Shown in pieces: positions 10,525 through 60,649 of a DNA stretch of 64,000 nucleotides. Each line of letters starts with the position of its first letter. Within the stretch, counting starts at the first letter, position 1. Source of the stretch: Lingula anatina (Eukaryota; Animalia; Brachiopoda); contig CM120644.1 in the NCBI GenBank assembly GCA_051362555.1, forward strand, positions 4,224,954 through 4,288,953, given 5' to 3'. The notes below the pieces were generated by a model, which was not told the origin of the DNA, ran no database searches, and saw only the letters and a program-made list of their open reading frames with translations. The translations under genes and the position numbers were made by a program.

Positions 10525-12586
10525 ATGTTGAAAATAGCCAAAGTTGTTCAAGCATGTCGTGGACTAGCGAAAACTACATGTATACAATTAAGCCAGACAT
10601 TGACAAGTATCAAAACCACTCGGATATCTATGACCCCTTACCAACCTGCTTTGGCTGCAAGTAACGAAGCCTGTATCCTTTCTGTACGGGGACTGACGAA
10701 CCGAACTTTGCGTTTGAAAAAAGTAAGTACTCCACCAAAGCAATTCCTTTTCTTTAAGCTGTATGGATAACGAGTTATTCATTAATAATTGTTAAAATAA
10801 ATTCGGCGGACATGAGCGTGTATATTGTTGAATCTAGTGAAGCATTAAAAACAACCACGGCAGTGAGTTGCCTTGTTTCCCTCTAAGTACTTTGTTCTAG
10901 CCCTGGCAAACGAATAAGGTAGAGTTAGGTTGTTGTAAACCAAATGTGCCAGAACTCTTACCTCAGAACTTTGGGATCCTCAGCATCTACTTTAGCTGGC
11001 AATGTTTTTATACCTGAAATACATGATTGTGATTTTTGTTTTAACAATGAGTGATGGCACCTGACGAATTTGTCTTCCATCAACAAATGTACACACACAC
11101 ACACACATACAAACATACAAACACACACACATACATACACAATTACACGCACATGAGTACACATGCACACAAACATGAGTGCAAGTACATGCACCCACGC
11201 ACAAACGCCACACATGAACCCAAATACACATGGATTTTTGTACTGACCGTACTTACCAAGTACAAGCACGGTTTGTTACGCTCCCTAAGCACAATACTTT
11301 TAACTGCCGTAAATGTTTGTGTTAAAGAAGTCTGGGTATACATTTATTTCCACCACCTATAACTGGTCCTGGTTTCACCTTGCCTTGAAAACCTTTCAGA
11401 TGCCGATGGATTACCCACTGGTAACTGGATCAGACCATTGGAAGCGAAAGATGCGCACTGTATTCAAGCGCTTAGACGTCAATGGCGACGGATACATTAC
11501 AGAGGAAGACTTTCTGATGGCTGCTATACGAGCTGCGCGGTATTTAGGTCTCAATGGTAACACTGTGTTTTAAGATGTATTTCGGGGCATATCTCCTAAG
11601 AAGGGGATAAAAAAAAAAGGTTCAACTAAAGGTCTACTTTGGATTTCATTATCCCCTCTTTTTAATACCTCTCGCTTAAATTCTGCTCATTTTGTTCACC
11701 TTAGGGGCTGACGACAGAATTGGGGGTGGGGGTGGGGGCGGGTATCAACCTGGTTTTGACGTCAATGGTGTAGTGTAGTTCTCCGCTCATTGTGCATTGT
11801 ATTGAAGCAGAGAAGTCAAAGGTGATCAGCACGATTTACCGTTGTTGGAGCTCAGCAGTTGTACCTGTGGCTCCAATACCCAGTTGATGACCCCCCGCAT
11901 CTCCCGTTAATCCAAAGACGAAGCAAATTAATTGCAGATAATTAAATATTACCGTTTTCATTTCCATGCTCCAGAAACTAACGTCCTATATAAGAGCATA
12001 CCGATATATGTTTGATTTGTATGGGTGGTACCTTGGTATGGAAGAAAAATGAAGGAACCGAAAAGGATCATTGACTTAATTTGTGAAGTACATACACTGT
12101 AATAGTATATGTGAAACCTATTTTGGTGACGTTATTGCTGCTCTAACATCATTAACCTAACATACATCTCTTATCGTTTTAGACGAGGAAACAGAACCAG
12201 TTTTGGAAATACGCCGTGAAGTCTGGAAAGCTTGGGCTACTAACAGTAAAACCGGCATGATATCAGAGGAAGAGCACAGAGAGAAAGCCATGTTACAATG
12301 TAATCAAAATAAGTTCCGACTGGAAATTTATCCTCAAATTTTACTGACGGGATTCGACAACATGGATAGCGATGGAGATGGCCGAATATCACAGAGGGAA
12401 TTTGCCGCCTTTTACTACGGTATGAACGTCCCAGCCGAATATTCGAAGGATGTCTTTGATGTTCTAGACGAAAACAAAGATGGCTTTATTTCATTGGAGG
12501 AATATGCACAAGCGCATGCGGATTTTTTGTTCAGTGAGGATCCCAATAGCAAGTACACTGACTTTTTTGGTCCTCTAGTGCCATAA
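10525..12586 (+). CDS. SCP/luciferin-binding-protein-like EF-hand protein A1 with presequence-like exon (252 aa)
   Basis: Exons 10525-10722 (MLKIAK...RLKK, gtaagt), 11400-11556 (MPMDYP..., EF-I DVNGDGYITEED), 12183-12586 (EF-III DSDGDGRISQRE, EF-IV DENKDGFISLEE); GT-AG, phases 0 and 1, open frame. Confidence 0.88.
11088..11230. repeat. CA-rich degenerate microsatellite in intron 1 of A1 (paralogous copy 16940-17075)
   Basis: acacacacacacacatacaaacatac... explains the spurious Cys/Val- and His/Thr-rich ORFs. Confidence 0.85.
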
Positions 12587-12634
12587 TTTCGTTGCCGTAC
12601 AGTACATGTACCGGTGCGACCATAAAAAATGACC

Positions 12635-12784
12635 AGGGCCTCGTATATCGAAAGCATCGCGTATTGCGAATCGTTATATCAAATAGAGGCTACAATGTAT
12701 TATATGGAACGAGTATGGGCGAGTTATGGAATCGAGACGCTTGTGCACGATCGAAATGCACGATGCTTTCGAGATACGGGGCCT
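12635..12784. mobile_element. ~150-bp palindromic MITE just 3' of the A1 stop (relatives 18555-18690, 21846-21993)
   Basis: ggcctcgtatatcgaaagcatcg...cgatgctttcgagatacggggcc inverted ends. Confidence 0.7.

Positions 12785-13269: not shown

Positions 13270-13272
<3 letters not shown>

Positions 13273-13330
<58 letters not shown>
13273..13330. repeat. (TA)n(TG)n microsatellite; other (TA)n at 19163-19200, 32143-32214, 49755-49822
   Basis: Direct inspection. Confidence 0.95.
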
Positions 13331-13445: not shown

Positions 13446-14730
13446 GCGTTTTTCCTTATTACATCGTGAAGAGAACAACCTGACCGCACCCAGAAGTGGT
13501 GTGCACCCGCTTTTATAGTGAGCGTTGACAAAATGTACTCAAATATTCATGACCCTATTACAGCGACATTGCGGTAGCTGTGATAACGTGATATATTTGT
13601 TGATGTCGATAACGGCCGTAATTGAACTATGAGTAAAAGTGAAATGTAAAAAAGGCAAATACACTTCCAAGATTTCTATGGCGAATGTTTGACCATATCA
13701 CAGAAGATCGATGGTTTTGTCAGAGGGTGGGCCGGGACTACCCTGAGTGCCAGAGCAACGTGAAAGTTAGTTTGTTTAATATTTAATATACCTTGGAGTC
13801 ACTTTCACTAGCTCTGACGAACAGCCACAATCTGACACCCTGAGCTTCAAAGATAACTTGACACTAACCTCTTCACTGTAGTCTATCTTCATCGTGTCAA
13901 GTTACCTCTGACGAAAATAGTTTGACCTAGTTTATATAAGCCAATCGAATCCATGTTTCAAAAATTTTCACCAAAGATTGGTGAAAACGCTGATTGGTTG
14001 AAAGTCCAGAATTATGTCAAATGAGAAAATTGTATTTTGTTGCGTCTGCATAACCGTCAATCGGTAATCCTCGGCCGATTCCGCAAGCGTTTTTCCTTAT
14101 TACATCGTGAAGAGAACAACCTGACCGCACCCAGAAGTGGTGTGCACCCGCTTTTATAGTGAGCGTTGACAAAATGTACTCAAATATTCATGACCCTATT
14201 ACAGCGACATTGCGGTAGCTGTGATAACGTGATATATTTGTTGATGTCGATAACGGCCGTAATTGAACTATGAGTAAAAGTGAAATGTAAAAAAGGCAAA
14301 TACACTTCCAAGATTTCTATGGCGAATGTTTGACCATATCACAGAAGATCGATGGTTTTGTCAGAGGGTGGGCCGGGACTACCCTGAGTGCCAGAGCAAC
14401 GTGAAAGTTAGTTTGTTTAATATTTAATATACCTTGGAGTCACTTTCACTAGCTCTGACGAACAGCCACAATCTGACACCCTGAGCTTCAAAGATAACTT
14501 GACACTAACCTCTTCACTGTAGTCTATCTTCATCGTGTCAAGTTACCTCTGACGAAAATAGTTTGACCTAGTTTATATAAGCCAATCGAATCCATGTTTC
14601 AAAAATTTTCACCAAAGATTGGTGAAAACGCTGATTGGTTGAAAGTCCAGAATTATGTCAAATGAGAAAATTGTATTTTGTTGCGTCTGCATAACCGTCA
14701 ATCGGTAATCCTCGGCTGATTCCGCAAGCG
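13446..14730. repeat. 641-bp near-perfect tandem duplication
   Basis: 13446-14089 is repeated at 14087-14730; GCG microhomology at the junction; one mismatch noticed (ggccgatt vs ggctgatt). Confidence 0.92.
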
Positions 14731-16415: not shown

Positions 16416-18506
16416 ATGTTGAAAATAGCGAAAGTTGTTCAAGCATGTCGTGGACTAGCGAGAATTATTCAATCAAGCCAGGGATTGACAAGTATCACAA
16501 CCACTCGGATATTTATGACCCCTTTCCAATCTAGTTTGGCTGCAAGTAACGAAACATGTATCCTTCCTGTCCGGGGACTGACGAACCGAACTTTGCGTTT
16601 GAAAAAAGTGAGTACTCCACCAAAGCAATTCCTTTTCTTTAAGCTGCATGAGCAACGAGTTGTTGATTAATAATTGTTACAATAAATTAGGCGGACATGT
16701 GCGTGTATGTTGTTGAATCTAGCGAGGCATAAAAAACAACCACGGCAGTGAGTTCTAGCCCTGGCAAAGGAATAAGGTAGAGTGAGGTTGTTGTAAACCA
16801 AATGTGCCGGAACTTTTACCTCAGAACTCTGGGATCCTCTACTTTAGCTGGCAATGATTTTATACCTGAAGTACATGATTGTGATTTTTGCCTTATCAAT
16901 GAGTGGTGTCACCTGACGCATTTGTTTTCCATCAACAAATGTACACACACACACAAATACAAACATACAAACACACACACACACACATACACAATTACAC
17001 GCACATGAGTACACACACAAACATGAGTGCAAGTACATGCACCCACGCACAAACGCCACACATGAACCCAAATACACATGGATTTTTGTACTGACCGTAC
17101 TTACCAAGTACAAGCACGGTTTGTTACGCTCCCTAAGCACAATACTTTCAACTGCCGTAAATGTTTGTGTTAAAGAAGTCTGGGTATACATTTATTTCCA
17201 CCACCTATAACTGGTCCAGGTTTCACTATGAAAACCTTCCAGATGCCGATGGATTACCCACTGGTAACTGGATCAGACCATTGGAAGCGAAAGATGCGCA
17301 CTGTATTTAAGCGCTTAGACGTCAATGGCGACGGATACATTACAGAAGAAGACTCTCTGATGGCTGCTAGACGAGCTGCTCAGTACTTGGGTCTCAATGG
17401 TAACACTGTGTTTTAATTTACATGTATTTCGAGGCATATTTCCTAAGAAGGAGATCAAAAACTAGGTTCAACTAAAGTTCCACCTTGGATTTCATTGCCC
17501 CCTCTTTTTAATGCCTCTCGCTTATATTCTGCTCATTTTGTTCACTTTAGGGGCTGACGACTGAATTGGGGGGGGGGGGGGGGGGTACAACCTGGTATTG
17601 ATGTCAATGGTACGGCGTAGTGTAGCTCTCCGCTCATCGTGCATTGTATTGCAGCAGAAAAGTCAAAGGTGTTCAGCACGATCTACCGTTGGTGGAGCTC
17701 AGCAGTTGTACCTGTGGCTACAATACCAAAGTAATGTTCCCCCACCTCCCGTTAACCCAAAGACGACGCAAATTAACTGCAGTTAATTAAATATTATCGT
17801 TTTCATTTCCATGCTCCAGAAATTAACGTCCTATCTAAGAACATACCGATGTATGTTTGATTTGCATGGGTGGTACCGTGGTATGGCAAAAAAGAAAAAA
17901 TAATAAATAAAAAAAAAAATAATAATAGAAATAAAAAATAAAACAAAAATAAAAAAAAAAAAAATAAAAAAAATGATCAGAAAAGGATCATTGACTTAAT
18001 TTGTGAAGCACATACAGTGTATTAGTATATGTGAAACCGATTTTGGTGACGTTATGGGTGATCTTACATCATTAATCTAACAGACATCTCTTATCATTTT
18101 AGATGAGGAAACAGAACCAGTTTTGGAAGTACGCCGAGAAGTCTGGAAAGCCTGGGCTACTAACAGTAAAACCGGCATGATATCAGAGGAAGAGCACAGA
18201 GAGAAAATCATGTCACAATGTAATCAAAATAAGTTTCGATTGGAACTCTATCCGCAAATTGTACTGACGGGATTCGACAACATGGACAGCGATGGAGATG
18301 GCCGAATATCAAAGAGGGAATTTGCCGCCTTTTACTACGGTATAAACGTCCCAGCCGAATATTCGAAGGATGTCTTTGATGTTCTAGACGAAAACAAGGA
18401 TGGCTTCATTTCATTGGAGGAATATGCCCAAGCGCACGCGGATTTCTTCTTCAGTGAGGATCCCAATAGCAAGTACAATGACCTTTGTGGTCCACTAGTG
18501 CCATAA
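16416..18506 (+). CDS. EF-hand protein A2 with presequence-like exon (250 aa)
   Basis: Exons 16416-16607 (gtgagt donor), 17243-17399, 18103-18506; close duplicate of A1 including introns and flanks. Confidence 0.88.
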
Positions 18507-19158: not shown

Positions 19159-19203
<45 letters not shown>

Positions 19204-23087: not shown

Positions 23088-24791
23088 GTCCGCTGTTCTG
23101 AATGCACTAATACACAGAGTCGTACTTCACAAAAGAAATTCAGGGACTTTGTCAGTTTCAAAGAATAGTAAGAGATTTTGGACGAAATGTTACATTTTGG
23201 GCAAAATACTAAAACTGAATAAAATCCAAGAACAATATTAGTTTATACATAAATCTACACTGTATAATGGAACATGACAGAGGCAAACTGTTATTGAAGC
23301 ACCATAGTAAATCTAAATGCTGGTATACCAGCTCGAGCCCATTGTTTAGAATTACTCACGTGGATTGCTTACTTGTTCTTTGGGTTTGTTTCGAAGTTTT
23401 CACGAAGAAATAAACTCGACGCCTCAGCCGCAACAGTTTACAGACGCTACTTCTATTGGTCTTTTATATGTTTGTATCACAATTACTATTTACAGCCAGA
23501 AAATTAAATAAATACGACGTTTAATTTTCGCCGCAAATTACCTCAATCTTAATATATGAAATACATGGTCTACTCAGTGCATTATGCGACTTAAATAACC
23601 TTCAGTGAAACTCATCGGCAGACGTATTATGTATAATGATGTGCGTTTATAAATTGAAAAAAAAGTCAAGTTATGTTTAAGAGACCATTCCCAGAGCCTA
23701 TCGTACTAAATTTGGATCGAACTATTTCCAAGGGGAATCTCACTTAATTGCACTTAACTTAAGGGGCTCAGATGTCTGTCACGCCTACTGAAGCTGATAG
23801 GGGGTAAGTAACTATCGTTTAGCAGCTCTAGTAGGCATCCCAGACATCAAAACCACTTAAGCTGAAAGCAATTTGGCAACCCCCCCCCGTGGAGATGGAC
23901 CGATCCTATTAGATCGATCTAGAGATGGAACCCAGTCTAAGGCACTTCCCCTAGGAATATTTTAATACTTAAAAAAGTGTATGCAAATACCATGAAGTAC
24001 TTTGAAAGACTCAGATATGATTTGACTTGAATAAAAATCACACTCACGAGTGTTTAGTATTCCTAACACTGAAGATCTTCGAGTCGCATCACAGACGATT
24101 TCTTGCTCCTAGCGAATTACACTAATTAGATAAATGCATCTTCGATAAAATCCTTTCCTTATCTTTTTTTCTGTAGTATATCTTGCATATTGAAAAATGT
24201 TATGGCTGGACTGCTTATATTCCCTTTAATTATGATAGCGATATATTGTACTAGTACTTCAAGAAGGCCACTAAATGAAAAGATAATTTTTGTTTTATTT
24301 TTGTCCTTGGTATTCTTTTCAGCTACCCATTAAGTCATATTGCGTAATGTGTATGTCGTTCTACTTACATTTTATATTCATTATGTCACTGACTGATACT
24401 TCTACCCGTATCGTGTAATGTTTGGACTGCATCATTAACTTAGACGATTTTGTAAACGTGGCAGGGTCCTGGAGATATTTGTACCAGATCAAACATCCCT
24501 ACTACAGTATCTGCTTAAGAGAACATAGCTACATGTAGATTATTTGCTGTCAACGGCAACTGCATACGTCCCTACATCGAAAATTTGAATACTTTGTAGG
24601 TAACACGTTCACCGTGGCCCAGCAATATTCCTTTTAATTTCATAGTTGTGTCACATGCGTCCTGTTCATTTACCTGTCACTATTTGCAAAGTAATGAATA
24701 AAAAAGAGGAAAAGTGGCCATGATATATCTATTATCGGTGACAATTTAAAAGACAAGCAGGGACTTTGTAAGTCTTGAGTATCATTTCAAG

Positions 24792-26302
24792 ATGTTGAAC
24801 TTGGCGAAGCGTTTTCAACCTTGCCGTGGGTTTGCAAGACATATGCGACCAAGTGGTAGATCAGCAAGTATCAGTAAGCCTACTCGGATATTTATTAACC
24901 CTTTTCAACCCACTTTTGTCAGAGGTAGAGCACCATGTATCCTTCCTGTCCGGGGGCTGAAGAACCGAACTTTGTGTTTGAAAAAAGTGAGTACTCCCCG
25001 TTCACATTCCCCCTTCATAAGGCTTCAAAGTTATTTTGAAGTAGATAAATGGAGATGCCGTAATAATCGTACACGATTTAAAACCGCATACCACTTCAGT
25101 TTTCATTGGCAGAGGAATAACACCTTGAATGTCATCAGTATTTGGTATGTTTTCAATATTTACATAAATGTATACATTGATTAACGAATCAATGTTTAGT
25201 TGCATAAATAGCAGAGGAGAGAGAAGGAAAATGCGACAAAATAGAAGAAAAGAATGAGACAAAAGACAGATTTAAGGTTGAAAGATATTAAGTAAAGAAG
25301 CAGTAAAAGTACTTTAAGCTTGTGAATGCATTTTCTTTCTCGTATTTCAGTAAAAATGACCGTGGTTTCATGACTTCATCACTTCCAATTTTTGAAAACA
25401 ACCCACTTGCATATTTCAGATGCCGGTAGATTACCCACTGGTGACTGGGTCAGACCACTGGAGACGAAAAACCCGCACTGTATTCCAGCGTTTAGATGCC
25501 AACGACGACGGATACATTACGGAAGAAGACTTGGTAACAGGTGCTCTCCGTGCTGCGCAGTACTTAGGTCTTAGTGGTGAGTACCTATACACATACTGAG
25601 TACTATATACATATGTAGCACGTTTGAATATTCGTTTTTTTTTTTTTTTTTTTTGGGGGGGGGGGGCAGATCTGTTGGGAAGAGTATAAAATATATCGTT
25701 TTAAAGTGATGCGTAGAAGTTAAAGACCACATCAACCGACGTTGGTGATGTGTATGAAGCGAATTACCTGTATACATATATTGAGAGATGTGCACGCATG
25801 TGCAATTGATACTGTTCAAGTAATTGGTATGTGATTATAACTGACCGTTACTTACGTTAATCTTATCTACACATCATACATATTTTCAGACGAGCAAGCC
25901 GAACCTTACATAAAATTACGCCATGAAATCTGGAAAGGTTTGGCGCAAGGTGTTAGAAACGGTAAAGTAACCAAGATATCACAGGAGGAACACAGAGAGA
26001 ACAGCATGGCGTATCTCAACCAAAGGAAATTCAGATTGGAAACCTATCCCCAGATTATACTTGCGGGATTCGACAACATGGATATCGATGGAGACGGTCG
26101 AATATCACAGAGGGAATTCGCCGCCTTTTTCTACAGTTTGAATGCTCCAGTGGAATATTCGAAGGATGTCTTTGATGTTCTAGACGAAAACAAAGATGGC
26201 TTCATTTCATTGGAGGAGTACGCCCAAGCGCACGTGGAGTTTTGGTTCAGTGAAGATCCCAACAGCAAGTACAATGAATTTCTGGGTCCACTTGTACCAT
26301 AA
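24792..26302 (+). CDS. EF-hand protein A3 with presequence-like exon (254 aa)
   Basis: Exons 24792-24986 (65 aa, no Asp/Glu), 25420-25576 (MPVDYP..., DANDDGYITEED), 25890-26302; ends AHVEFWFSEDPNSKYNEFLGPLVP. Confidence 0.88.
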
Positions 26303-28285
26303 TTTGGTTTTCGAACATGTAAGACAACGAAATGGACCAATTCTATTGACCGAGATTTATGAACATAAATCTGCTATACGCTAAATGCAATTAATCTGTT
26401 ACCATATATTGTCGTTTTTATTGTAGCACATGTATAGTGCACTGTTTAGTAATTGCTCGGATAAAAAGAAGTTTAATTTAATACTGACTAATCTTACTCG
26501 AAACGAGCATCAGTACATTACGAGATTATCACAAGGCGTTTTTTATATGGACTTAATTGTCATGCGTGTCACGTGGTGACAGTCTGCAAGGGATGTCTCC
26601 CAGAGACTGGTCCCACAGATGTGCTAGTTGGTATAACTGAGGAAAATACGACTGGATGAATTAAAACATATACTTTGGTTCAGTTATTCCCTTTGGTAAT
26701 ATTCCTTATTCATGGCTGTTGCCAATAGTACTAGAATGTTGATTTCACCTCATTCCGTGGTAAGAGGGCAAACTACTAGTACCAAAACTGGCCAAAGACA
26801 CACCACCTCACCATCCTCTCAAGATGTACCCGTTATGAGTGAGCTAAGGATAACAATCAGTCTGCCAAATATAGCCTAATAACAGATTCCATTGATGATA
26901 GAGTTACTATTAACACTTGTTAGTATTTGTGGCTTAGCTTGTTATCACTCTGCTTAATTTGATATATTACCTTAAAGCAGTTGCTATGTTAACGTTATTT
27001 GCGAGACATACCCTAATCACTTGGCACATATTGCGATACTCAGACCAAGAGAGACGTCTCCATAATTGGACTATCAGAGCAGTCAGGAAACCTAAGCCCC
27101 CATCCTAAAACGGTAAGGGTTGCGCGGCTCGCTCTCAGCCTAGGCCTTCTTGTGAACATGAATTTTCTTAAAAAAATCCATCTCATTTGTGGTCCTTTTC
27201 CCCTCCATCTTTGCTAAAACTTTAATTATATCTAAAGTAAGTTATATGTAAGTTATTTACCATTCATGATTATCAATCACAGACTTATTTTCAATTCGAT
27301 TCAATTTATTTCTGTACTGGTACATAAATGATCACGAGCTTATACAATATAAAATTATAACAACGATGCAACTGGTGCATTACCGTTACCTAATTGGTAA
27401 TTGTGTTGTCAGTTCGTGATTGAACAAATATATATCTTTATATAATGAACAAATGTACTAGTTAAGTAAATAATAAAATATTCAAGCTAGGCGGTGAGAT
27501 GCATGTACATGTATAACTTCTTGTGAGATTTTATATTTACCATAAACACAATTCGTGAAACATATGGATACAATAACATGTTACACAATATAGAGTGGTT
27601 CAAATTTACAAGATGGGGATGGAAAACAACACTTAAAGAAATACTGTAGATAAGTAAATAACAATGTTACACAGATTTATACATAAATATTGTTACTCTT
27701 TACCATGTGCCATGTTTAGTATCACTTATAGTTAAATGTTTGCAACATTTTGTGTGTATTAATCAAAGTACAAATGTCACTAAAATCACATTTAAACTAA
27801 CAACTATATGATTCTGTTGTATTTAAGAAAAAAAAAAACATTTTTACAGCAAAATTACCTCAGATACTCCTCCCAATTAAACATTTCTACATCGTATAGC
27901 CTGATATTCTGACATTCCGGTAAAAGATAGTTGAAAAGAATCCACAGATCATTTGTAATGATACAGGTACTTGCTTAAAGATGGTTAAATATATGGGTAG
28001 TAATTTTATCTCATTCATGTTTTTGGCATAAGTAAGGGCGGCGAGATTACTAAGTGGGCAATTCATTCATGTTCATTGCTTCATTGTTTGTGAGTTCACG
28101 AGAAGGCAACATACTGTTACTATAGAAAAACGTTTTAGAGTTGCCGGATACCAAAATAATAGAACATATTTATATGTAAGGGAAACAAATTTGAAACAAA
28201 ATACCGAAATTCTTTTTCCGCATGACGTGAACACTGTTTAGGTCCTAATTCAACAGTCCAAACAATCAAGTTTCAAACTTGATTT

Positions 28286-29728
28286 TCATTGGGCGTGGGG
28301 ATTTCCTTTCTCTTCTCCTGTTGCCATCGTTACCAGCTTCACGGTTGTGTCAGCGTAGTCCCTGGCTTGAGCATCAGTTACCCTATTGGTGCCGTAGTCA
28401 AGATTATAGCAGAAGCGGCCACGGAACTTGTGCAGAGTGTGCATAAACGGAACAGAATACTCGTGACATGCAGCTGACGTCACTATCCTCGTGGCATCAA
28501 CCTCGTCGCGTCCAGCACTCGGAGGACAATATTTATCGCAGTCGCCGATGTTTGAGAAACCAAATTCAAACTGACATGAAGGTTTCGTTACTATGCGCTT
28601 AGTGATGCGGTCGAAAAAGGATTGGGCTTTGAATATTCTGTAACCTTGCATGATATCGCCATTGTTAAGCTTTGTATGAATAGCTTCGGTGGCCTTTCTT
28701 GCAACATTCCAAAATGAACTGTAGGTGGCGGCAACTGGGGTGGTCAAATTAATGTCAACTATACATGCGAACAGCCCAAAAATATCTCGTGATTCTGGTG
28801 GTAGAAAACGCCGCATGTTAACAGGATGAGTTGAACCAATGTTGAAAGTGCGCGGTGTTTCTCCTTTACTCATGATGTTCACTAAAGCTATCGATGCAGC
28901 AGCAACAAAAGCACCGTGAACAGTGACTTTGTGATCCTTGCACTTCGCTATAACTCTTTCCGTTTCCAGAATTGAGAATACCAACGCTAGCGACTTTGTG
29001 CAGCCTCCTTGTGATGACGATTGTGGGAAGTATGTCATGAACAGGCTTTCCTTTGGAAGACATTCTTTATACAGTATTCTTGCCATTTGACAATAGTCAG
29101 ACCATCTTATTGTCATCTCATCCCGAGGCAGGAGGTCTTCTAAAGCTGGCCGAACCTCTATCACATCACCATCATCGCAGGTTCCACCCGTTATCACTGA
29201 GTTCAGGATACCAATCAGCCTGTCTAACATGGCTAAATTAGAGATACCATCGATGATGGAGTGATGGATACCAAATACGATTGTGTAGCTGAAGAGAGCG
29301 CTGTCACACGAAGTAAAACCATCTCCTTCTGTGCAAACGAGAGGTTTGCGCAGGATTTTTACCTTCCAAAGCGGCCCATTCGTTGTATCGAATGTAACGC
29401 GCATCATGTTTTCGTGCACGTTCTTCCATTCATCAGCTGTAGCCACATGTAAGATCTCAAAATCTAAACGGGGGTCGTCCATGAACTTGAAATGTCGCTT
29501 ACCATCTTGCCAACATAAAGCCAGTCGAAGATGAGCAATGTTTCTCTGAAGACGTTGAAGGCAAACTCTCCAAATTTCATCAGTTAACAAACTCTTTGAA
29601 ACTATCCACGAGGTGAAGGCAATAGTGGAGATATTTGACTCGTGCATGATAGCAAAAGTGTTTTCTAACCCTTGCAATGGGCGAATGGCCTTATTTGAGA
29701 CAATAGGTTGTGTCACTTCTGTAGCCAT
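28286..29728 (-). CDS. CoA-dependent acyltransferase / condensation-domain superfamily protein (alcohol acetyltransferase/PapA5-like), 480 aa
   Basis: Uninterrupted ORF; HHSIIDG matches HHxxxDG; RPL..LE..F N-terminus, GPLWKV, CKDHKVTVHGA, PVNMRRFL and FSNIG motifs; tttcag acceptor 12 nt upstream of the ATG suggests a 5'UTR intron. Confidence 0.88.
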   Translation of the reverse strand: MATEVTQPIVSNKAIRPLQGLENTFAIMHESNISTIAFTSWIVSKSLLTDEIWRVCLQRLQRNIAHLRLALCWQDGKRHFKFMDDPRLDFEILHVATADEWKNVHENMMRVTFDTTNGPLWKVKILRKPLVCTEGDGFTSCDSALFSYTIVFGIHHSIIDGISNLAMLDRLIGILNSVITGGTCDDGDVIEVRPALEDLLPRDEMTIRWSDYCQMARILYKECLPKESLFMTYFPQSSSQGGCTKSLALVFSILETERVIAKCKDHKVTVHGAFVAAASIALVNIMSKGETPRTFNIGSTHPVNMRRFLPPESRDIFGLFACIVDINLTTPVAATYSSFWNVARKATEAIHTKLNNGDIMQGYRIFKAQSFFDRITKRIVTKPSCQFEFGFSNIGDCDKYCPPSAGRDEVDATRIVTSAACHEYSVPFMHTLHKFRGRFCYNLDYGTNRVTDAQARDYADTTVKLVTMATGEEKGNPHAQ

Positions 29729-30725
29729 TTTTATTTGACTCTGAAATGGAATAAATTAATAAAGTGTGGCTTGCACCCACTAGATCATTCATATATATAT
29801 ATGAAGACACGTGTTAGATGACTGCACCAGTTAGATGAAATGGAAGGGAGGTGCGAACATTCCCAATTTTACGAAATAATTTATTTGAATTTTATGCCAA
29901 AGTATTCTGAATGTGTCGATACATTTGTACCTACCTTCAATGCCACGTCCGCTAGCGCTGTCCTTTCCCGCAGATAAAATATCATTTACTTTGCTGCACA
30001 CAAATGTTAAACTATTTGGTCACTTTTGACGCACTAAATGGAGTAATGACATGCAGGGAGACATTAGAGGGGTAAAAAAATCGGTACATATGTCAAAAGC
30101 GGAATGTGTCCAGTATTAATGTGAGGTCTGCTTGCTGTACAACGGCCAAGGTTTGTAAGACTGGGACATGAATATTTTTGGAATTTTTCGATTGGCTACT
30201 ACAGGATATTTTTGTATATTTTACACTGTATTTTCGAGTCGCCGAGAAGTTACCTCGTGCGTTTTGCAAATTACGCAAATTAGAATTCAGCTGGATCTTC
30301 TCCCCCTTTTTTATTTCTGCTTTATATCAAGAGGCTTAAGCTTAAGTGGTGAAGTAAACGCATATACTAATTACAGATCCTCGTCAGGATGGCTAAAGAA
30401 AAACGAAGTCAGGAAACACATTGTGCCTTCTCCTCCCTGTTTCTTCTTAATTTTTTACCTTTGAACACCCCTTCAGCCTCCCCTCGCTGTATGTTTGTCC
30501 TGCCCTCCCAAACCTTTATTCCATTATATTGAGCTGACCGGTCGTTGACCCGTGTCAGTGAAAAGTCACAGTAGAATTACCATATGGAGTAAACATTGTA
30601 AATTGGTCACTCCTAGGCTACGAGGCAACACGAGTACTGAGTCAAATAGCTGATATACACGGTTTTCAATATTTCATCGTCTTATTTATCCCATTAAGGG
30701 GCAAGTAAGACTTTACCAAATAACC

Positions 30726-32112
30726 ATGCGACTCACAAGTTCAGTTTGGTGTAATACTGGATTCTTCAGAAGATTTGCAGCGGATTTTAAACTTGTCCGT
30801 GGCCTGGCGAACCAGCCCCAGCATTTTAAGAAAGTAAGTTGATATAGAGAATGTACTATCTGAACACATACAATGTAACATAGTGCTATGTTTCTCGAGT
30901 CTCCAAAGCTACGTTATTCTATTCAAACTCGATGTTCCGTTTTCTGGAACACTAACAGCATGGAAACAGCTGAAGAACACAAGGGGTGTGTATTCTTGCA
31001 TTCAAGATGGAAGTTGATTTATCAAAATTCCAAAAGTGAAAAAAATGCAATGATAGCCCTGCAAGCCACTGACTTTATTATTGCAAAACCCCACACTATT
31101 TTGGAAGGTTTAAACCAATCTAACCAAGGGGGGAGTCGAAAGGCCAATTTACAGGTTTTAGTAAACATTTCAGATGCCCATTGATTACCCACCGGTCACT
31201 GGATCCAGCCACTGGAGACGGAAAGTGCGCACATGTTTCAACTGCTTAGATTCAAATTCTGACGGCTGTATTACAAGAGAAGACTGGGTGGCAACCGCTA
31301 ACAGGACTGTCCAGTTTTTAAGCCTTGATGGTAATTGACTAATATGACATGGAATACACTTATATTATCATCATCATTAATTTTACTTAATCGATTTTAA
31401 ATGCTAAAAAATACTGTTAGAATTGAGGAAGGGTATATTCATTGAATCTCTTAAACTTTGATTCCTTTTTGTAAAAATAAAACATCGATTTAACTTGACA
31501 TATATCTTCAAACGTGTGTGTGTGTGTACGTGTTCATGTATGAGCATCATCATAAGTTAAACATACTCGATTAGAATGCTGTAATAATACGGCTAGAAAT
31601 GAGGAGGTGTATAAACACTGTAATTCTTAAAGTTCGATTCGATTTTGTGAAAATTAGACACAAATTTAGCTTAACATATATCTTTAACTGTTTCAGAAAA
31701 GCAAGCTGACGTCATACTTAAGCAACGCCTGGGCATCTGGGAACGTTATGTGCAAAGTTTAAGGGATGACATTTCTGCCAAGATGATAGAGGACGAATAC
31801 GTAAAGGAAAGTTTGTCGATGGTTAACCAACTTAGCTATCGACGTGAACTACTTCCCAGCATCATCACCGTGGAATTCAATGCCATGGATGTTGATGGCG
31901 ATGGTCGTATATCTAAGGAAGAGCATGCTGCTTTTTTCTACAGCATACGTGCCCCAGTTGATGCTTCGAAGAGAGTCTTCAATGTGATGGATAGCAATAA
32001 GGCTGGGTTTATATCCATGGAAGAATTTGCAGAAGGGTATATGGAGTATTGGCTAACGGAAGATCCAAATAATAAATACAATATGTTCTTTGGCCCCCTT
32101 GTCAAAATGTAA
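30726..32112 (+). CDS. EF-hand protein B1 with short presequence-like exon (226 aa)
   Basis: Exons 30726-30833 (MRLTSSVWCNTGFFRRFAADFKLVRGLANQPQHFKK, gtaagt), 31174-31330 (MPIDYP..., DSNSDGCITRED), 31697-32112. Confidence 0.85.
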
Positions 32113-32140
32113 CTAGCTTCTTCCGTAACCAATGTTTGCA

Positions 32141-32217
<77 letters not shown>

Positions 32218-39405: not shown

Positions 39406-41102
39406 ATGTCTAAGTTTTTCCAAAATAGTTGGGGATTATTAAGAATTGTGCAATCAAGATGGGGATTGGCACGAACCGTGTCATCTAACCAGATATTATT
39501 GACGAAAGGTTTACAGAGTGGGTTAGTGCTGGAATATACACCATGTAAGCAATCAGTTCGAGAACTGACCGGCCAAGTGACCGTCCAACCAGTACGGTTT
39601 AAGAAAGTAAGTAAAAATTAAGCAGTCAGTAATGATGGCGAGATTTACAGCACGGTCATCTCCAGTATAAAATACTGGTAAAACAATTTAATCCCTTTAT
39701 CCCGTACAGGGGTATGTATTTGCCATCTATCCTATCTACCTAACTGAGGCCCGTAGCCGGGGGAGGGGGGGATTGGGGGGGTTTAAAAGAACCGCCCCTT
39801 TTGGTGGGAAAAGGTCCCCTCTGGGTAAAATTTGATCTAGGTTCATGAAGTTTTTATTGAAAAAAGGTCCACTTTTTCAGAAAAAGAACCGTCCTTTTGG
39901 AATGTCTGGCTTCGGGTCTGTAACTTCTACACGTTCCCTGTACACGCAGTATTGTAGCTACCCGGTAGGGTGACTGCTTAGGGCATATTGTAAAGTCAGA
40001 TTTGGTTGTCCCAACATTTGCCTATTTGAGAGAAGATTATTGGATATTAAGGTATATTTTTTATGCAGAGCGTCGAGTGGTGTAGGTTGGGGGTGTAAAT
40101 TACTGAACATTAACTACATACGTGCGTTTGGGCCCGCAATCTTTGTGAACTGCGCAATGGCTTCTGAGTCCTCAAATGCAAAATAACCCAGACATGTAAT
40201 TTTTATGACGCAGATAGTGAAAGGACATAGTACTCGTTTTGAACAAGATGGAATAAAAAACAACTTTTTGCCTCTTGTGTATTTCACAGACAATAATGCA
40301 CATGTTCTTTGTCACCAACAATCTAGATGCCGACCGATTACCCCCCGGTTACTGCATCTGATCACTGGAGACGAAAGATACGAACAATATTTAATTGCTT
40401 CGATTCGAACGACGACGGCATCATTACAAAGGAAGACTTCGAGACAAGCGCCAGGCGCACCATAGAGCATCTGAAACTCAATGGTATATTTTGAATTGCA
40501 TCTGAATTTGATTAATCTAGGCTCTCAAATTTTTTTCAGTAATTATGATCACAACCTTCCATTCTGCCTCCGTCTCATTGTTTTTCTCTCAAAGACAGCA
40601 TAGATGTCCTTTTCGTTAAAGCTTTATTTTGAAACATTTTTTGCAATATCAAACATTTTTTTAATTATTTTGAGAAAACATTACCCCTTTTTTAGACGAA
40701 CAAGCAGCAAATATACTTAAACAGCGCCTTGACGGATGGGAGTTTATGTCCAGAGGTTCCAAAGATGCTTCTCAAATAACAGAGGAGGAATGTGTGGGAT
40801 TTGTTCTTTCAGTCGTCAATCATAGTACCTACCGGAAAGAGTTCTTCCCAATGGTGGTATCCGTGGGTTTCAAGGTCATGGACATTGATGGTGATGGTCT
40901 TGTAACAAAGGAAGAACACGCTGCTTACTTCTACAGCATGAACGTCTCTGTTGAAGAATCGAAGAAGATATTTGACGTGATGGACGCCAACAAATATGGT
41001 TTCATATCCATTGATGAGTACGCGCATGCGTATGCGGAGTTTGTTTTCACCGAGGATCCAAATAACAAATACAATGGGTTTTACGGTCCGTTAGTTGATT
41101 GA
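39406..41102 (+). CDS. EF-hand protein C2 with presequence-like exon (254 aa)
   Basis: Exons 39406-39606, 40327-40483, 40696-41102; EF-IV variant DANKYGFISIDE. Confidence 0.87.
39746..39920. mobile_element. MITE in intron 1 of C2, 5-bp TSD TAACT
   Basis: Inverted relative of 4601-4767; paralogous introns show the empty site cctaacttcta. Confidence 0.88.
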
Positions 41103-44511: not shown

Positions 44512-45815
44512 ATGTCTAAGCTTTTCCAAAATAGTTGGGGATTATTAAGAATTGTGCAGTCAAAATGGGGATTGTCACGAACCGTGTCATCTAAACAGAT
44601 ATTATTGAAGAAAGGTTTGCAGCGTGGGTTAATGCTGGAATATACACCCTGTAAGCAACCAGTTCGAGAACTGACCGGCCAAGTGACCGACCAACCAATC
44701 CGCTTTAAGAAAGTAAGTAGAAATTAAGTAGTCAGTAATGATGGCGAAATTCACAGCGCGTTCATCTCCAATATAAAACACTGGTAAAACAATTTAATCC
44801 CTTGATCCCGTATGCATTTGCCATCTATCCTATCTACCTAACTTCTACACGTACCCTGTAGACGCAGTATTGTAACTACCCAGTAGGGTGATCGCTTAGG
44901 GCATATTGTAAAGTCAGGGTTGGTTGTCCAAACATTTGCCTATTTGAGAGAAGATTATTGAATATTAAGGTATATTTTTATGCAGAACGTCAAGTGGTGT
45001 AGGTTTGGGGTGTAAATTACTGTACGTTTACTACATACGTGCGTTTGGGCCCGCAATCTTTGTGAACCACGCAATGGCTTCTGAGTCCTCAAATGCAAAA
45101 TAACCCAGATAATTAATTTTATGACGCAGATAGTGAAAGGACATAATACTCGTTTTGAACAAGATGGAATAAAAAAAAACTTTTTGCTTCTTGTGTATTT
45201 TACGGACAATAATGCACATGTTCTTTGTTGCCAACAATCTAGATGCCGACCGATTACAGATGGAGGTCACGAGGAATGTGGGTTCCTTCATTCAAGATGG
45301 AAGTTAGTTTATCAAAATTCAAAATAATAAAAAAAAACCAAAATGCAAAGATAGCCCTGAACACCGTTGGCTTTATTATTGCAAAATCCCACACTATTTT
45401 GGAAGGTTTAAACTAATCTTACTAAGAAGGAGGGGGGGGGGTCGAAAGGCCAATTTACAGGTTTTAGTAAACATTTCAGATGCCCATTGATTACCCACCG
45501 GTCACTGGTTCCAGCCACTGGAGACGGAAAGTGCGCACATGTTTCAACTGCTTAGATTCAAATTCTGACGGCTGTATTACAAGAGAAGACTGGGTGGCAA
45601 CCGCTAACCGGACTGTCCAGTATTTGAGCCTTGATGGTAATTGGCTAATATGACATGGAATATACATATATGACCATCATCATAAATTTTACTTTATCGA
45701 TTTATAATGCTAAAAGAATACTGTTAAAAATGAGGAAGGGTATATTCATTGAAACTCTTAAACTTTGATTCCTTTTTGTAAAAATAAAACATCGATTTAA
45801 CTTGACATATATCTT

Positions 45816-45852
<37 letters not shown>

Positions 45853-46449
45853 ATGTGTATACGTGTTCATGCATCAGCTTAATCATAAGTTAAACTTACT
45901 CGATTAGAATGGTGTAAGAATACGGCTAGAAATGAGGAAGTGTATAAACATTGTAATTAATTCTTAAAGTTCGATTCGAATTTGTAAAAATTAGACACAA
46001 ATTTAGCTTAACATGTATCTTTAACTGTTTTAGAAAAGCAAGCTGACCTCATACTTAAGCAACGCCTGGCCATCTGGGAACGTTATGTGCAAAGTGTTAG
46101 GAATGACACTTCTGTCAAGATGACGTGGGACGAATACTTGAAAGAAACTTTGTCGATCGTGAACGAAATAAGCTATCGACGTGAGTTACTTCCCAGCATC
46201 ATAGCCGTGGAATTCAATACCATGGATATTGATGGCGATGGTCGTATATCTAAGGAAGAGCATGCTGCTTTTTTCTACACTTTACGCGCCCCAGATGATG
46301 ATTCGAAGAGAGTCTTCAACGTGATGGATAGCAATAAGGATGGGTTTATATCCATGGATGAATTTGCAGAAGGGTATATGGAGTTTTGGCTAACGGAAGA
46401 CCCAAACAATAAATACAATATGTTTTTTGGCCCCCTTGTCAAAATGTAA
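44512..46449 (+). CDS. Chimeric EF-hand gene: C-type presequence exon + B-type body (257 aa)
   Basis: C-type exon 44512-44712; 15-nt stub of C exon 2 at 45243-45257; B-type intron from ~45285; B-type exons 45480-45636 and 46034-46449, all open. Confidence 0.75.
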
Positions 46450-50046: not shown

Positions 50047-51578
50047 ATGTCTAAGCTTTTCCAAAATAGTTGGGGATTATTAAGAATTGTGCAGTCAAAA
50101 TGGGGATTGGCACGAACCGTGTCATCTAAACAGATATTATTGAAGAAAGGTTTGCAGCGTGGGTTAGTGCTGGAATATACCCCCTGTAAGCAACCAGTTC
50201 GAGAACTGACCGGCCAAGTGACCGACCAACCAATCCGCTTTAAGAAAGTAAGTAGAAATTAAGTAGTCAGTAATGATGGCGAAATTCACAGCGCGTTCAT
50301 CTCCAATATAAAACACTGGTAAAACAATTTAATCCCTTGATCCCGTATGCATTTGCCATCTATCCTATCTACCTAACTTCTACACGTACCCTGTACACGC
50401 AGTATTGTAACTACCCAGTAGGGTGATCGCTTAGGGCATATTGTAAAGTCAGGGTTGGTTATCCAAACATTTGCCTATTTGAGAGAAGATTATTGAATAT
50501 TAAGGTATATTTTTTATGCAGAGCGTCAAGTGGTGTAGGTTGGGGGTGTAAATTACTGAACGTTTACTACATACATGCGTTTGGGCCCGCAATCTTTGTG
50601 AACTACGCAATGGCTTCTGAGTCCTCAAATGCAAAATAACCCAGACAATTAATTTTTATGACGCAGATGGTGAAAAGACATAGTACACCTACTCCTTTGA
50701 TCAAGATGGAATAAAAAAAACTTTTTGCCTCTTGTGTGTTTTACTGACAATAATGCACAAGTTCTTTGTCGCTTACAATCTAGATGGCGACCGATTACCC
50801 CCCGGTTACTGCATCTGATCACTGGAGACTTGTCGTATAACAATACGAACAATATTTTATCGCCTCGATTCGAACAACGACGGCATCATTACAAAGGAGG
50901 ACTTCGAGACCAGCGCCAGGCGTACCATAAAGCATCTGAAACTCAATGGTATATTTTGAATTCCATCTGAATTTGAATTATCTAGGTTCTCAAAAGAATT
51001 TCGTGCAGTAATTATGTTCATAATCTTCCATAGATCCATTCTGCCTCCGTCTCCCTGTTTTTTCTCTCTAAGACCGCATAGATGTCTTTTTCATAAAAGC
51101 TTTATTTTGAAACATTTTTGCAATAACAAACATTTTATTTGAATTATTTTGAGTAAACTTGTCCTCCTTTTTAGACGAACAAGCAGCAAATATACTGAAA
51201 CAGCGCCTGGAACTATGGGAGTTTCTGTCAGGTTCCAAAGATGCTTCTCAAGTAACAGAGGAGTAATGTGTGGGATTTGATCCTTCGGTCACCAATCAAA
51301 GTACCTACCGGAAAGAATTCTTCCCATTGTTTGTGTCCGTGGGTTTCAAGGTCATGGACATTGATGGTGATGGTCTTGTAACAAAGGAAGAACACGCTGC
51401 TTATTACTACAGCATGAACGTCCCTGTTGAAGAATCAAAGAAGATATTTGACGTAATGGACACTAACAAGGACGGTTTCATATCCATTGATGAGTACGCG
51501 CATGCGTATGCTGAGTTTCTTTTCACCGAGGATCCAAATAACAAATATAATGGGTTTTTTGGTTCTTTAGTTGATTGA
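50047..51578 (+). pseudogene. C-type EF-hand pseudogene C3
   Basis: Exons 50047-50247, 50784-50948 (net +8-nt insertion ttgtcgtataaca giving a frameshift and in-frame TAA), 51175-51578 (GAA>TAA at 51264-51266). Confidence 0.88.
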
Positions 51579-52938: not shown

Positions 52939-54461
52939 ATGTCTAAGCTTTTCCAAAATAGTTGGGGATTATTAAGAATTGTGCAGTCAAGATGGGGATT
53001 GGCACGGATCGCGTCATCTAACCAGATATTATTTAAAAAAGGTTTGCAGCGTGGGTTAGTGCTGGAATATACACCATGTAAGCAACCAATTCGAAAACTG
53101 ACCGACCAAGTGACTGACCAACCGATCAGCTTTAAGAAAGTAAGTAAAAATTAAGTAGTCAGTAATGATAGCGAAATTCACAGCACGGTCATCTCCAATA
53201 TAAAACACTGGTAAAACAATTTAATCCCTTGATCCCGTATGTATTTGCCATCTATCATATCTCTTAACTTCTACCCGTACCCTTCACACGCAGTATTGCA
53301 ACTACCCAGCAGGGTGATCGCTTAGGGCATATTGCAAAGTCAGGGTTGGTTATCCAAACATTTGCCTATTTGAGAGATGATTATTTGATATATAGGTATA
53401 TTTTTATGCAGGGTGACGAGTGGTGTAGGTTGGGGGTGTAAATTACTGTACGTTTACAGTACGTGCATTTGGGTCCGCCATCTTTGTGCAATGGCTTCTG
53501 AGTCATCGGATGCAAAATAACACAGACAATTAATTTTTATGACGCAGATAGTGAAAGGACATAGTACTCGCTTTTAACAAAATGAATAAAAAAAAACTTT
53601 TTTCTCTTGTGTATTTTACGGACAATAATTCACATGTTCTTTGTTGCCAACAATTTAGATGCCGACCGATTACCCCCCGGTTACTGCATCTGATCACTGG
53701 AGACGAAAGGTACGAACAGTATTTAATCGCTTCGATTCAAACAACGACGGCATCATTACAAAGGAGGACTTCGAGGCCAGCGCCAGGCGCACCATAGAGC
53801 TTCTGAAACTCAATGGTATATTTTGAATTGCTTCTGAATTTGATTAATCTAGGTTCTCAAAAGAATTTCGTGCAGTAATTATTTTCATAATCTCCCATGA
53901 CTCCGTTCTGCCTCCCTCTCACTGTTTTTCTTTCAAAGACCGCATAGATGTCCTTTTCATTAAAGCTTTATATTGAAACATTTAAGCAATATCAAACATT
54001 TTTATTAGTTTTATTTTGAGAACCCCCCCCCCCCCTTTTTTTTAGCTGAACAAGCAGCAAATGTACTTAAACTACGCCTCGAAGTATGGGAGTCTCTGGC
54101 CAGAGGTTCCAAGGATGTTTCTCAAATAACAAAAATAACAGAAAAGGAATTTGTGGGGGTTAATTCTTCGGTCGTCAATCAAAGTTCCTACCGGAAGGAG
54201 TTCTTCCCAATGGTGGTATCCATGGGTTTCAAGGTCATGGACATTGATGGTGATGGTCTTGTAACAAAGGATGAACACGCTGCTTATTTCTACAGCATGA
54301 ACGTCCCTGTTGAAGAATCGAAGAAGATATTTGACGTAATGGACACTAACAAGGACGGTTTCATATCCATTGATGCGTACGCGCATGCGTACGCGGAGTT
54401 TGTTTTCACCGAGGATCCAAATAACAAATACAATTGCTTTTACGGTTCGTTAGTTGATTGA
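52939..54461 (+). CDS. EF-hand protein C4 with presequence-like exon (257 aa)
   Basis: Exons 52939-53139, 53659-53815, 54046-54461; 9-nt duplication (QITKITEK); EF-IV position 12 Glu>Ala. Confidence 0.85.
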
Positions 54462-58330: not shown

Positions 58331-59197
58331 CGTCCAAAAGGTTCCTGTAACTAGAGAAGCTAGTTTTGCGTGGTTATGGCAACATCAACCTACCAATTCG
58401 TGATCAAAATAGATGATGCATTTTTTGACGAACATTACTGAGGTGATTAAGGCCAAAAATTTTATTAATGACCAACAAGAATTACACAGCTGTTACGATT
58501 CCATTTTGGTTACATAGGAAACCATCTCTCTCACAATTATAGGCAGGCCTACCCAGCTACCAGACTCGGCACCGAATGATCCTGAATTCACCGCTAGATG
58601 GGACCACACTAGCCGTTTTTAAAGTATGTGGGTAGGTCTGATAGATACAGAATCTATTTAATCATTCATTTCATAAAAATTATAGCAACACACAATCGTT
58701 AAATGTGTTTTAGAATTTATGAAATATACAACTGTATAAATTGTTGTTTATTTAAAATCTTTTGTCCTTATACTTAGGAAGGGGTTTTAGAAATTTAGAA
58801 GGGAGCTATGGCAACCACATAGCTACGATAGCGTCCTGTTTCCTGGGTGTCGGATTCCTGCGCGAATATACAATCCTCGTCCCAGACAAGGTCCAGATAG
58901 ATGGTGGACCGAAATGTTGTTTTTCACTAGTGTTATTTAGTCTCTTTGTAAACAACAATTATATTTTTATCATCCTGTCTTAAGACCAAGACAAATCTCT
59001 TTCATAGCCAATGCAAGTTTGATATTGTGAGTCAAGTCGCGTTCATTTTATAATGCAATACCTTTATTTGTGTGAATATACAGGTAGGACGTCCTTTGTA
59101 GTCGAACACCCTTTTATCATACGTGCGGAGATTTAGCTTGAATCGAGTTGAGTTTAGCCGAAGGATTCGCTATTTATCCAGTTTTACTATTGCCAAA

Positions 59198-60649
59198 ATG
59201 TCTAAGTTTTTCAAATATTGTTCGGGATTATTAAGAATTATTATTATAATAATATTATTATTTGTGCAATCAAGATGGGGATTAGCACGAACCGACTAAC
59301 CAGTACGCTTTAAGAAAGTAAGTAAAAATTAAGTAGTCAGTAATGATGGCGTAATTCACAGCGCAGTCATCTCCAGTATAAAACACTGGTAAAACAATTT
59401 AATCCCTTGATCCCGTATGTATTTGCCGTCTATCTTATCTACCTAACTTCTACACGTACCCTGTACACGCAGCATTGTACATGTAGCTACCCAGTAGGGT
59501 GATCACTTATATCATATTTTAAAGTCAGGGTTGGTTGTCCAAACATTTGCCCATTTGAGAGAAGATAATTGAATTAAGGTATATTTTTTATGCAGAGCGT
59601 GAAGTGGTGTAGGTTGGGGGTGTAAATTACTGTACGTTTACTATACGTGCGTTTGGGCCCGCAATCTTTGTGAACCACGCAATGGCTTCTGAGCCCTCGA
59701 ATGCAAAATAACCCAGACAATTAATTTTTATTACGCAGATGGTGAAAAGACATAGTACACCTACTCCTTTGATCAAGATGGAATAAAAAAAAAAAAAAAC
59801 AACTTTTCGCCTCTTGTGTGTTTTACGGACAATAATGCACGTTCTTTGTCGTTAACAATCTAGATGGCGACCGATTACCCCCCCGGTTACTGCATCTGAT
59901 CACTGGAGAAGAAAGATACGAACAATATTTTATCGCCTCGATTCGAACAACGACGGCATCATTACAAAGGAGGACTTCGAGACCAGCGCCAGGCGTACCA
60001 TAAAGCATCTGAAACTCAATGGTACATTTTAATATTATCTGAATTTGATTAATCTAGGTTCTCAAAAGAATTCCGTGCAGTAATTATGTTCATAATCTTC
60101 CATGGCTCCATTCTACCTCCGTCTCATTGTTTTTCTCTCAAAGACCGTATAGATGTCTTTTTCATAAAAGCTTTATTTTGAAACATTTTTGCAAAAACAA
60201 ACATTTTATTTGAATTATTTTGAGAAAACTTTCCCTCCTTTTTAGACGAACAAGCAGCAAATATACTGAAACAGCGCCTTGAACTATGGGAGTTTCTGTC
60301 AGGTTCCAAAGATGCTTCTCAAGTAACAGAGGAGGAATGTGTGGGATTTGATCCTTCGGTCGCCAATCAAAGTACCTACCGGAAAGAGTTCTTCCCAATG
60401 TTTGTGTCCGTGGGTTTCAAGGTCATGGACATTGATGGTGGTGGTCTTGTAACAAAGGAAGAACACGCCGCTTATTACTACAGCATGAACGTCCCTGTTG
60501 AAGAATCGAAGAAGATATTTGACGAAATGGACACCAACAAGGACGGTTTCATATCCATTGATGAGTACGCGCATGCGTATGCGGAGTTTCTTTTCACCGA
60601 GGATCCAAATAACAAATATAATGGGTTTTTCGGTCCTTTAGTTGATTGA
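59198..60649 (+). pseudogene. Probable C-type EF-hand pseudogene C5
   Basis: Exon 1 59198-59317 internally deleted, with TAA at codon 34; exon 2 59864-60021 has +1 C in a homopolymer; exon 3 60246-60649 open, EF-III DIDGGG. Confidence 0.8.

Follow-up and report, generated by a model that had tools for sequence, protein, structure and literature searches.

Much of a 64,000-nt window of the genome of the brachiopod Lingula anatina (contig CM120644.1, positions 4,224,954 to 4,288,953; 'the window' below means this whole stretch) is occupied by a tandem array of genes whose products join an EF-hand domain of the sarcoplasmic calcium-binding protein (SCP) type to an N-terminal extension encoded by its own exon. 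The phenomenon is real and reaches far beyond the window, across Lingula. Classical cytosolic SCPs carry no targeting peptide; the Lingula proteins, as read from their genes, appear to depart from this pattern in having an N-terminal extension that is spliced and translated. The explanation we favour, with moderate confidence, is that the extension is a putative presequence by which these SCP-fold proteins would be imported into the mitochondrial matrix, that it would be cut at an R-3-like site, and that the proteins may serve there as Ca2+ buffers or sensors. Matrix targeting as such, which one of the rival explanations shares, seems likely.

A tblastn search of the window with the exons of the first unit located 10 copies of a three-exon gene, all on the plus strand, between 10525 and 60649. 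The initial annotation of this stretch had described an ATG-led phase-0 exon upstream of every unit, and its donor, (L/F)K(K/N) followed by GT(A/G)AGT, is indeed at the expected site in 10/10 units, 340–767 nt before the start of exon 2 (AG, then ATG) in each. With phase 0/1 splicing, an intact open reading frame (ORF) of 226–257 aa is obtained for eight of the 10. All ten units counted in that annotation were thus found, but C4 and C6 are pseudogenes, the first exon of C6 being broken by an in-frame stop and a rearranged middle, and the seventh unit, which is intact, is a C/B chimera. RNA reads from seven of nine runs were aligned (X1, X2, X4 and X7 on 20 kb; X8, X1, X3 and X5 on 24600–35800), and the aligned reads are mostly 88–95% alike to the window. 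The units are arranged as follows.

10525–10722 (+): A1 exon 1, presequence-like, 66 aa; RNA depth nil over its 3' end in 4/4 runs
11400–11556 and 12183–12586 (+): A1 SCP-fold domain, exons 2 and 3; intact ORF
16416–16607 (+): A2 exon 1, 64 aa; RNA depth 0–0.03
17243–17399 and 18103–18506 (+): A2 SCP-fold domain, exons 2 and 3; 99% identity to RefSeq P0004 (147 aa)
24792–24986 (+): A3 exon 1, 65 aa with 0 acidic residues; low sense-strand depth in X1 and X3
25420–25576 and 25890–26302 (+): A3 domain, exons 2 and 3; exons 2 and 3 joined in 4 X1 reads and 1 X3 read
30726–30833 (+): B1 exon 1, 36 aa; sense-strand depth 0.69 in its bin, X1 only
31174–31330 and 31697–32112 (+): B1 domain, exons 2 and 3; intact ORF
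34193–34393 (+): C1 exon 1, 67 aa; 13 X8 reads (7 starts) join it to 34926
34926–35082 and 35315–35721 (+): C1 domain, exons 2 and 3; exon 2-3 joints in X8, X1 and X3
39406–39606, 40327–40483 and 40696–41102 (+): C2, three exons; intact ORF
44512–46449 (+): chimera C3/B2, with a C-type exon 1 (44512–44712) and a C exon-2 stub at 45243
45480–45636 and 46034–46449 (+): B-type part of chimera C3/B2; intact if acceptor 45480 is used
50047–51578 (+): C4 pseudogene; exon 1 (50047–50247) intact, exon 2 (50784–50948) frameshifted, exon 3 (51175–51578) with a stop
52939–53139, 53659–53815 and 54046–54461 (+): C5, three exons; ORF intact, last EF loop without a position-12 acid
59198–60649 (+): C6 pseudogene; exon 1 (59198–59317) broken, exon 2 (59864–60021) frameshifted, exon 3 (60246–60649)

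The chimeric unit is 93% identical to RefSeq P0178, a model of the same C/B make-up. It appears to be the product of a deletion, and the stub acceptor at 45243 may act as a competing splice site.

Transcripts of the C type contain the first exon, joined in frame to exon 2. In X8, 13 reads with 7 starts join 34392 to 34926 with one A between, as expected of a C-type exon 1 ending in AAA, and 29 loose ends at 34926 were read as the end of a C-type exon 1. Two X1 reads contain a C-type exon 1-2 joint in which exon 2 begins with GTG instead of ATG; no C-type exon 1-2 joint was among the joints listed for X3 and X5. The initial annotation would have been abandoned, by its own account, if no reads joined exon 1 to exon 2, and for the C type such reads exist.

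Relatives were gathered by phmmer (1.84 billion representatives) and by a profile search. Exon 3 of A3 matches Lingula anatina RefSeq proteins, to which the window proteins are up to 99% identical, and the best 39 profile matches all come from L. anatina (E of 2e-40 or better), the next standing at 5e-30 and 25% identity. The Lingula clade comprises 46 named proteins, which fall into 45 clusters at 90% and come from 15 contigs distinguished by length; some may be alleles. An extension of at least 20 aa is present in 31 of these 46 RefSeq proteins, with 3 that look mis-modelled and 1 truncated. The exon had been called hidden; given that the extension is annotated in 31/46 Lingula relatives, it is not, and the word holds only for some models, such as P0004 with its internal Met start. 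In a quick tree of 90 rows (excluding fragments shorter than 150 aa, P0024, P0037, P0040 and 7 rows without an exon-2 start), 42 Lingula rows stand together on one side of a branch, and P0013, P0007 and P0035 join at 95; P0013 is a Lingula protein without the extension. No close relatives turned up in other brachiopods, species that may be poorly represented, and a metagenome scan gave a single locus from 228 pattern matches, with a generic 40-aa EF-hand match.

Several lines of evidence bear on where translation starts. The exon-1 ATG has A at -3 in 10/10 units. Of the 31 RefSeq relatives having at least 19 upstream residues, 19 lack the Met at the start of exon 2; the extension must therefore be translated in these proteins, as otherwise the first EF-hand would be lost. 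A start at the exon-2 Met alone, which the initial annotation had named as fatal to its proposal, is hence excluded for these relatives. We strongly infer from the sequences that translation begins at the exon-1 ATG. The exon-2 Met is probably an old cytosolic start: it sits right at the exon boundary, many paralogs have lost it, and P0013 does without the extension.

The nine intact exon-1 peptides are 36–67 aa long and contain 0–3 Asp/Glu residues, with a net charge of +6 to +15; our recount agrees with the lengths and acidic counts given previously, including none in the 65 aa of A3. As a control for chance, the window's 1704 non-coding ATGs were examined, and a run of 64 stop-free codons lies behind 55 of them. 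The two strands together have 62 GTRAGT sites; 12 of them close a phase-0 reading frame of at least 30 codons that opens with ATG, and 9 of these 12 belong to array exons. A Pfam search with two exon-1 peptides returned 0 families. Between intact window copies, exon-1 indels measure 3 or 6 nt, and flanks and introns show non-triplet gaps. A1 and A3 are 0.71 identical in exon 1 versus 0.41 in the intron. In the C copies exon 1 is no better conserved than the 5' flank, which makes the comparison uninformative there. Judged from these comparisons and from its dN/dS, exon 1 is weakly constrained in its letters and strongly constrained in its frame. The earlier statement that frame and composition are kept while the letters drift is thus borne out, by the triplet indels, the few acids and a median identity of 27% among 16 divergent extensions. 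An artefact, or an exon of the 5' untranslated region, was rejected in view of the frame, the triplet indels and the loss of the exon-2 Met.

Mitochondrial presequences are described, in the accessible text of one source, as 10–70 aa long, amphipathic, S/T-rich and acid-free, with an Arg two or three residues before the cut (-2 or -3; PMC12895284). The Lingula extensions resemble cleavable presequences in length, in poverty of acids and in richness in R/K/S/T. Pooled, they contain 10.6% R, 7.7% K, 8.2% S, 5.7% T (S+T 13.9%) and 11.4% L, and their acidic share (D 1.5, E 2.5, D+E 4.0%) compares with D 9.6, E 8.2 and D+E 17.8% in the domain. At most one acid is found in the first 25 residues of 35/38 rows versus 5/30 other SCP-like N-termini, the latter being a weak control. 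The pooled hydrophobic moment peaks at 105–110 degrees, with a mean z of 0.85, and lies over the shuffle mean in 31/35 rows. Other addresses were considered and rejected: an endoplasmic reticulum signal peptide (best 10-residue hydropathy at most 1.6 across 35 rows), a peroxisomal targeting signal 2 (PTS2-like matches in 2/35 rows and 0 window units) and myristoylation (a Met-Gly start in 0/35). The extension is without a hydrophobic stop-transfer stretch, and hence the end point would be the matrix.

Near the end of the exon, the extensions share a motif at a fixed place, in spite of their low identity. Counting back from the exon end in the non-C rows, R occupies -12 in 25/29 and F/L/V/M/I occupies -10 in 28/29, followed by T/S/A in 21/29; in the C rows, R-x-hydrophobic lies four places earlier (6/6). 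These counts exclude 4 rows that are mis-modelled or truncated. A strict form of the motif is found at offset 9 in 20 rows and at offset 13 in 6 rows, of 38, compared with a shuffle maximum of 5. The RGL(A/T/K) motif noted in the initial annotation is present in A and B copies, and is the A/B form of this family-wide R-x-hydrophobic, the C copies having R(E/K)LT. In its fixed placement the motif looks like a mitochondrial R-3 cleavage site, and a cut is predicted there. In the AlphaFold model of the paralog P0010, the extension is predicted to be disordered, with a predicted local distance difference test score (pLDDT) below 50 over residues 1–51, and the predicted cut falls after 53.

The domain itself is that of an SCP. 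The P0010 model (predicted template-modelling score 0.76) superimposes on Nereis SCP (2scp) with a template-modelling (TM) score of 0.91 by target and a root-mean-square deviation of 2.1. Nereis SCP is also the best sequence match (E 5e-13, ~30% identity), and 2scp aligns from residue 9 of P0003. Further matches in sequence or fold are Renilla coelenterazine-binding protein, followed by juvenile hormone (JH) diol kinase, calexcitin, okadaic-acid-binding protein and photoproteins. Both the compact four-motif fold of SCPs and their loop pattern, with I, III and IV canonical and II degenerate, are found. In a loop table of 23 rows, supplemented by alignments, the A units have canonical loops I, III and IV, with loop I ending in Asp, and have lost loop II. 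Loops I, III and IV would thus bind Ca2+, Asp being the position-12 residue of loop I.

Photoproteins hold their ligand in a pocket in which His, Trp and Tyr residues play a role. The H-x-x-F-W of aequorin's last helix is kept in A3 and P0003. The last-helix His and Trp occur together in 2/35 rows, and a first-helix His (after W-x-R-K) in 0/42; with both last-helix residues in just two rows, the proteins are not photoproteins by this test, and membership of that group was rejected. Within A3, the C-terminus (26132–26299) has aequorin as its best solved-structure match, with His/Trp in register, and the A units end in Pro.

The nature of the fold matches raises a rival in which the proteins are likewise targeted to the matrix, but have as their main job the Ca2+-controlled binding of a small hydrophobic ligand or a protein partner by cavity-diversified paralogs, along the lines of Renilla coelenterazine-binding protein, okadaic-acid-binding protein or JH diol kinase. 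Ligand binders of this kind (2hps, 7pjd and 4wri) come next among the fold matches, the middle of the domain is its most variable part, and A3 and P0003 have the aequorin-like last helix. Selection points the same way: domain dN/dS ranges over 0.15–0.50 in 10 pairs, with 0.39–0.50 among recent C and B copies versus 0.15–0.25 in A-type and deep pairs. However, plain SCP is the best match in both sequence and fold, and the His/Trp pair is rare. We consider ligand binding as the main job unlikely.

Several observations weigh against import of these proteins as matrix Ca2+ buffers or sensors. The composition of exon 1 has a chance of 0.0005–0.035 per unit among stop-free non-coding frames in this AT-rich DNA, which is modest for most units, and its dN/dS is 0.38–1.09 across 16 pairs. 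Amphipathicity reaches p<0.05 in just 4/35 rows, being clear in A2, A3, P0170 and P0184, and is at shuffle level in B1 and four C peptides (z -0.08 to 0.28). The extension by itself yielded nothing usable in an Atlas search. The R motif was defined after the sequences had been inspected, and the paralogs share ancestry and are not independent. Residues 51–60 of P0010 score a pLDDT of 67 with a short helix, and hence the motif may be, at least partly, structural. Loop IV is degenerate in B1, C2 and C5. Dozens of diverged paralogs are more than a plain buffer needs. The exon-2 Met is kept in all ten window units. As to RNA, the observed junction holds for the C subfamily and not for an exact copy, given the limited likeness of the reads. 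Exon 1-2 junctions of A1, A2, A3 and B1 were not among the joints listed, such that one of the four junctions named in the initial annotation (A1, A3, B1 and C1) was seen, at family level. The 20-kb alignment (X1, X2, X4 and X7) was swamped by repeats, with 0 exon junctions among the best 15 of 85 joints, and exon 1 of A1 and A2 has next to no RNA depth.

Some of these points would suit an extension that is translated but serves as a basic disordered tail by which the protein is tethered, be it to acidic membranes, to nucleic acid or to a partner, with the conserved last 12 residues of the extension packed on the domain. Weak amphipathicity in B and C, the intermediate pLDDT and short helix across the conserved motif, an Atlas structure match (match 1) that aligns from residue 49, and the lack of an Atlas feature match for the extension are all compatible with such a tail. 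A tether explains less well why exclusion of acids from the N-terminus and the R-x-hydrophobic-S/T/A pattern both persist while the extension varies in length from 24 to about 90 aa across the family; the lack of a signal-peptide core and of a Met-Gly start, and the rarity of PTS2-like matches, also tell against it. All told, we regard a tethering tail as quite unlikely.

Other points would fit a picture in which the window units make mostly ordinary cytosolic SCP from the exon-2 Met, by leaky scanning or a downstream promoter, with the long form a minor product. An ATG opens exon 2 in 10/10 units, where exon 1 provides the A at -3, and the RefSeq models P0003, P0164, P0173 and P0158 begin there. 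Depth over A3 exon 1 is low on the sense strand and well below that of exons 2-3 in X1 and X3, where the exon 2-3 joint is seen in 5 reads. Against this, polyA libraries lose 5' ends. Moreover, the exon-1 ATGs have A at -3 themselves, the two starts in A and C units are separated by out-of-frame ATGs, and many paralogs have lost the exon-2 Met. These data make predominant cytosolic translation very unlikely.

Under the matrix-buffer explanation, then, exon 1 is spliced onto exon 2 in frame (as seen for the C type), and a start at the exon-1 ATG would yield a basic, acid-poor N-terminal peptide. This peptide may drive import through TOM/TIM23. The mitochondrial processing peptidase would cut after R-x, and one hydrophobic residue would be trimmed in the R-3 pattern, a step carried out in mitochondria by Icp55/XPNPEP3. 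Nine exon-1 residues would then remain (13 in the C type), ahead of a domain with a predicted fold whose loops I, III and IV would bind Ca2+. Historically, a coding exon may have been added immediately ahead of the old start Met of a cytosolic SCP gene, which then multiplied in tandem with turnover, leaving a chimera and pseudogenes.

The window contains other features. One exon of a further, divergent EF-hand gene of SCP-like type lies at 6659–7213 (+); it begins at a phase-0 acceptor and falls on a long branch outside the Lingula extension clade. Between A3 and B1, an intronless frame of 489 codons (28286–29755, minus strand) matches PapA_C, alcohol acetyltransferase and Condensation, and has low X8 read depth. 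A tandem duplication at 13446–14730 has a 641-nt spacing and a reported 100% identity over 300 nt; RNA reads skip one copy, and the duplication is either a recent event or an assembly artefact. Between C5 and C6 (56119–58334) is a G+C-richer element of ~2 kb with nested long inverted repeats, its arms reaching 300 nt and being about 82% complementary, which resembles a foldback transposon.

If the matrix-buffer explanation is true, Lingula would possess a natural protein-based matrix Ca2+ buffer or sensor, in the form of dozens of presequence-bearing SCPs, and would provide a clear case of a cytosolic protein re-routed by exon gain, perhaps with a parallel in arthropods. The usual view is that phosphate, not a soluble EF-hand protein, buffers Ca2+ in the matrix. 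Our search of the openly accessible literature, which did not extend to the Drosophila matrix APEX proteome, found neither a mitochondrial SCP nor this Lingula family described, and the available part of a silkworm APEX supplement has no SCP row. The family is not named in the accessible portions of the Lingula genome and shell-proteome papers (PMC4595640, PMC13425148), nor is it among the top five expanded families in what could be seen of the genome supplement (PMC4595640).

Few invertebrates build their shell from calcium phosphate, and Lingula is among them. According to the accessible part of one paper (PMC3824353), it is a long-standing proposal that mitochondria accumulate the Ca and phosphate needed for apatite, and Ca/P granules are reported in Lingula cells. 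It is conceivable, if improbable, that a matrix SCP family holds and releases Ca2+ so as to form or control calcium-phosphate precursor granules for the apatite shell. On this long-shot hypothesis the genes would be a dedicated set of molecular tools for Lehninger's mitochondrial route to phosphate biomineralisation, and an old mitochondrial idea would gain named genes.

Among known systems, the closest are invertebrate SCPs. Sources seen in part describe SCPs as parvalbumin-like buffers and Pf-SCP, from the pearl oyster Pinctada, as a mantle Ca carrier for shell formation (PMC12542302), and place Nereis SCP beside coelenterazine-binding protein and photoproteins (PMC3570280). The Lingula proteins share with Nereis SCP and Pf-SCP the fold, ~30% identity, active-looking loops I, III and IV and a degenerate loop II. 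They differ in that solved SCP chains begin at the domain, whereas Lingula adds a presequence-like exon of 24–90 aa, in dozens of copies. Renilla coelenterazine-binding protein is similar in fold (TM 0.71–0.84 by target, 28% identity), as are aequorin-type photoproteins (TM about 0.6–0.7 by target), although the latter are set apart by pocket residues that Lingula rows mostly lack. To our knowledge, no light emission is known from Lingula.

Extended SCPs also exist in arthropods. P0098, P0115 (Cacopsylla), P0146 (Notodromas) and P0153 (Brenthis) have an SCP domain behind a basic, acid-poor N-terminus, 0–1 acid being found in the first 25 residues in 4/5 rows, and a 296-aa arthropod cluster is the top Atlas feature match (0.94). 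These proteins resemble the Lingula family in combining the domain with such an extension; they differ in forming a separate branch (99 in the quick tree), in having an acidic Ser-Asp linker and in lacking the shared exon-end motif. We found no localisation for them in the literature. This arthropod clade may have gained a similar extension separately, and could be a precedent, with independent mitochondrial SCPs. Among mitochondrial EF-hand proteins, MICU1-3, SCaMC/aralar and EFHD1 belong to other families and mostly face the intermembrane space; the match of SCaMC-1 to the Lingula proteins spans just two loops. The nearest counterpart in design is man-made: engineered matrix aequorin and parvalbumin join a presequence to a soluble EF-hand protein, as the Lingula proteins appear to do.

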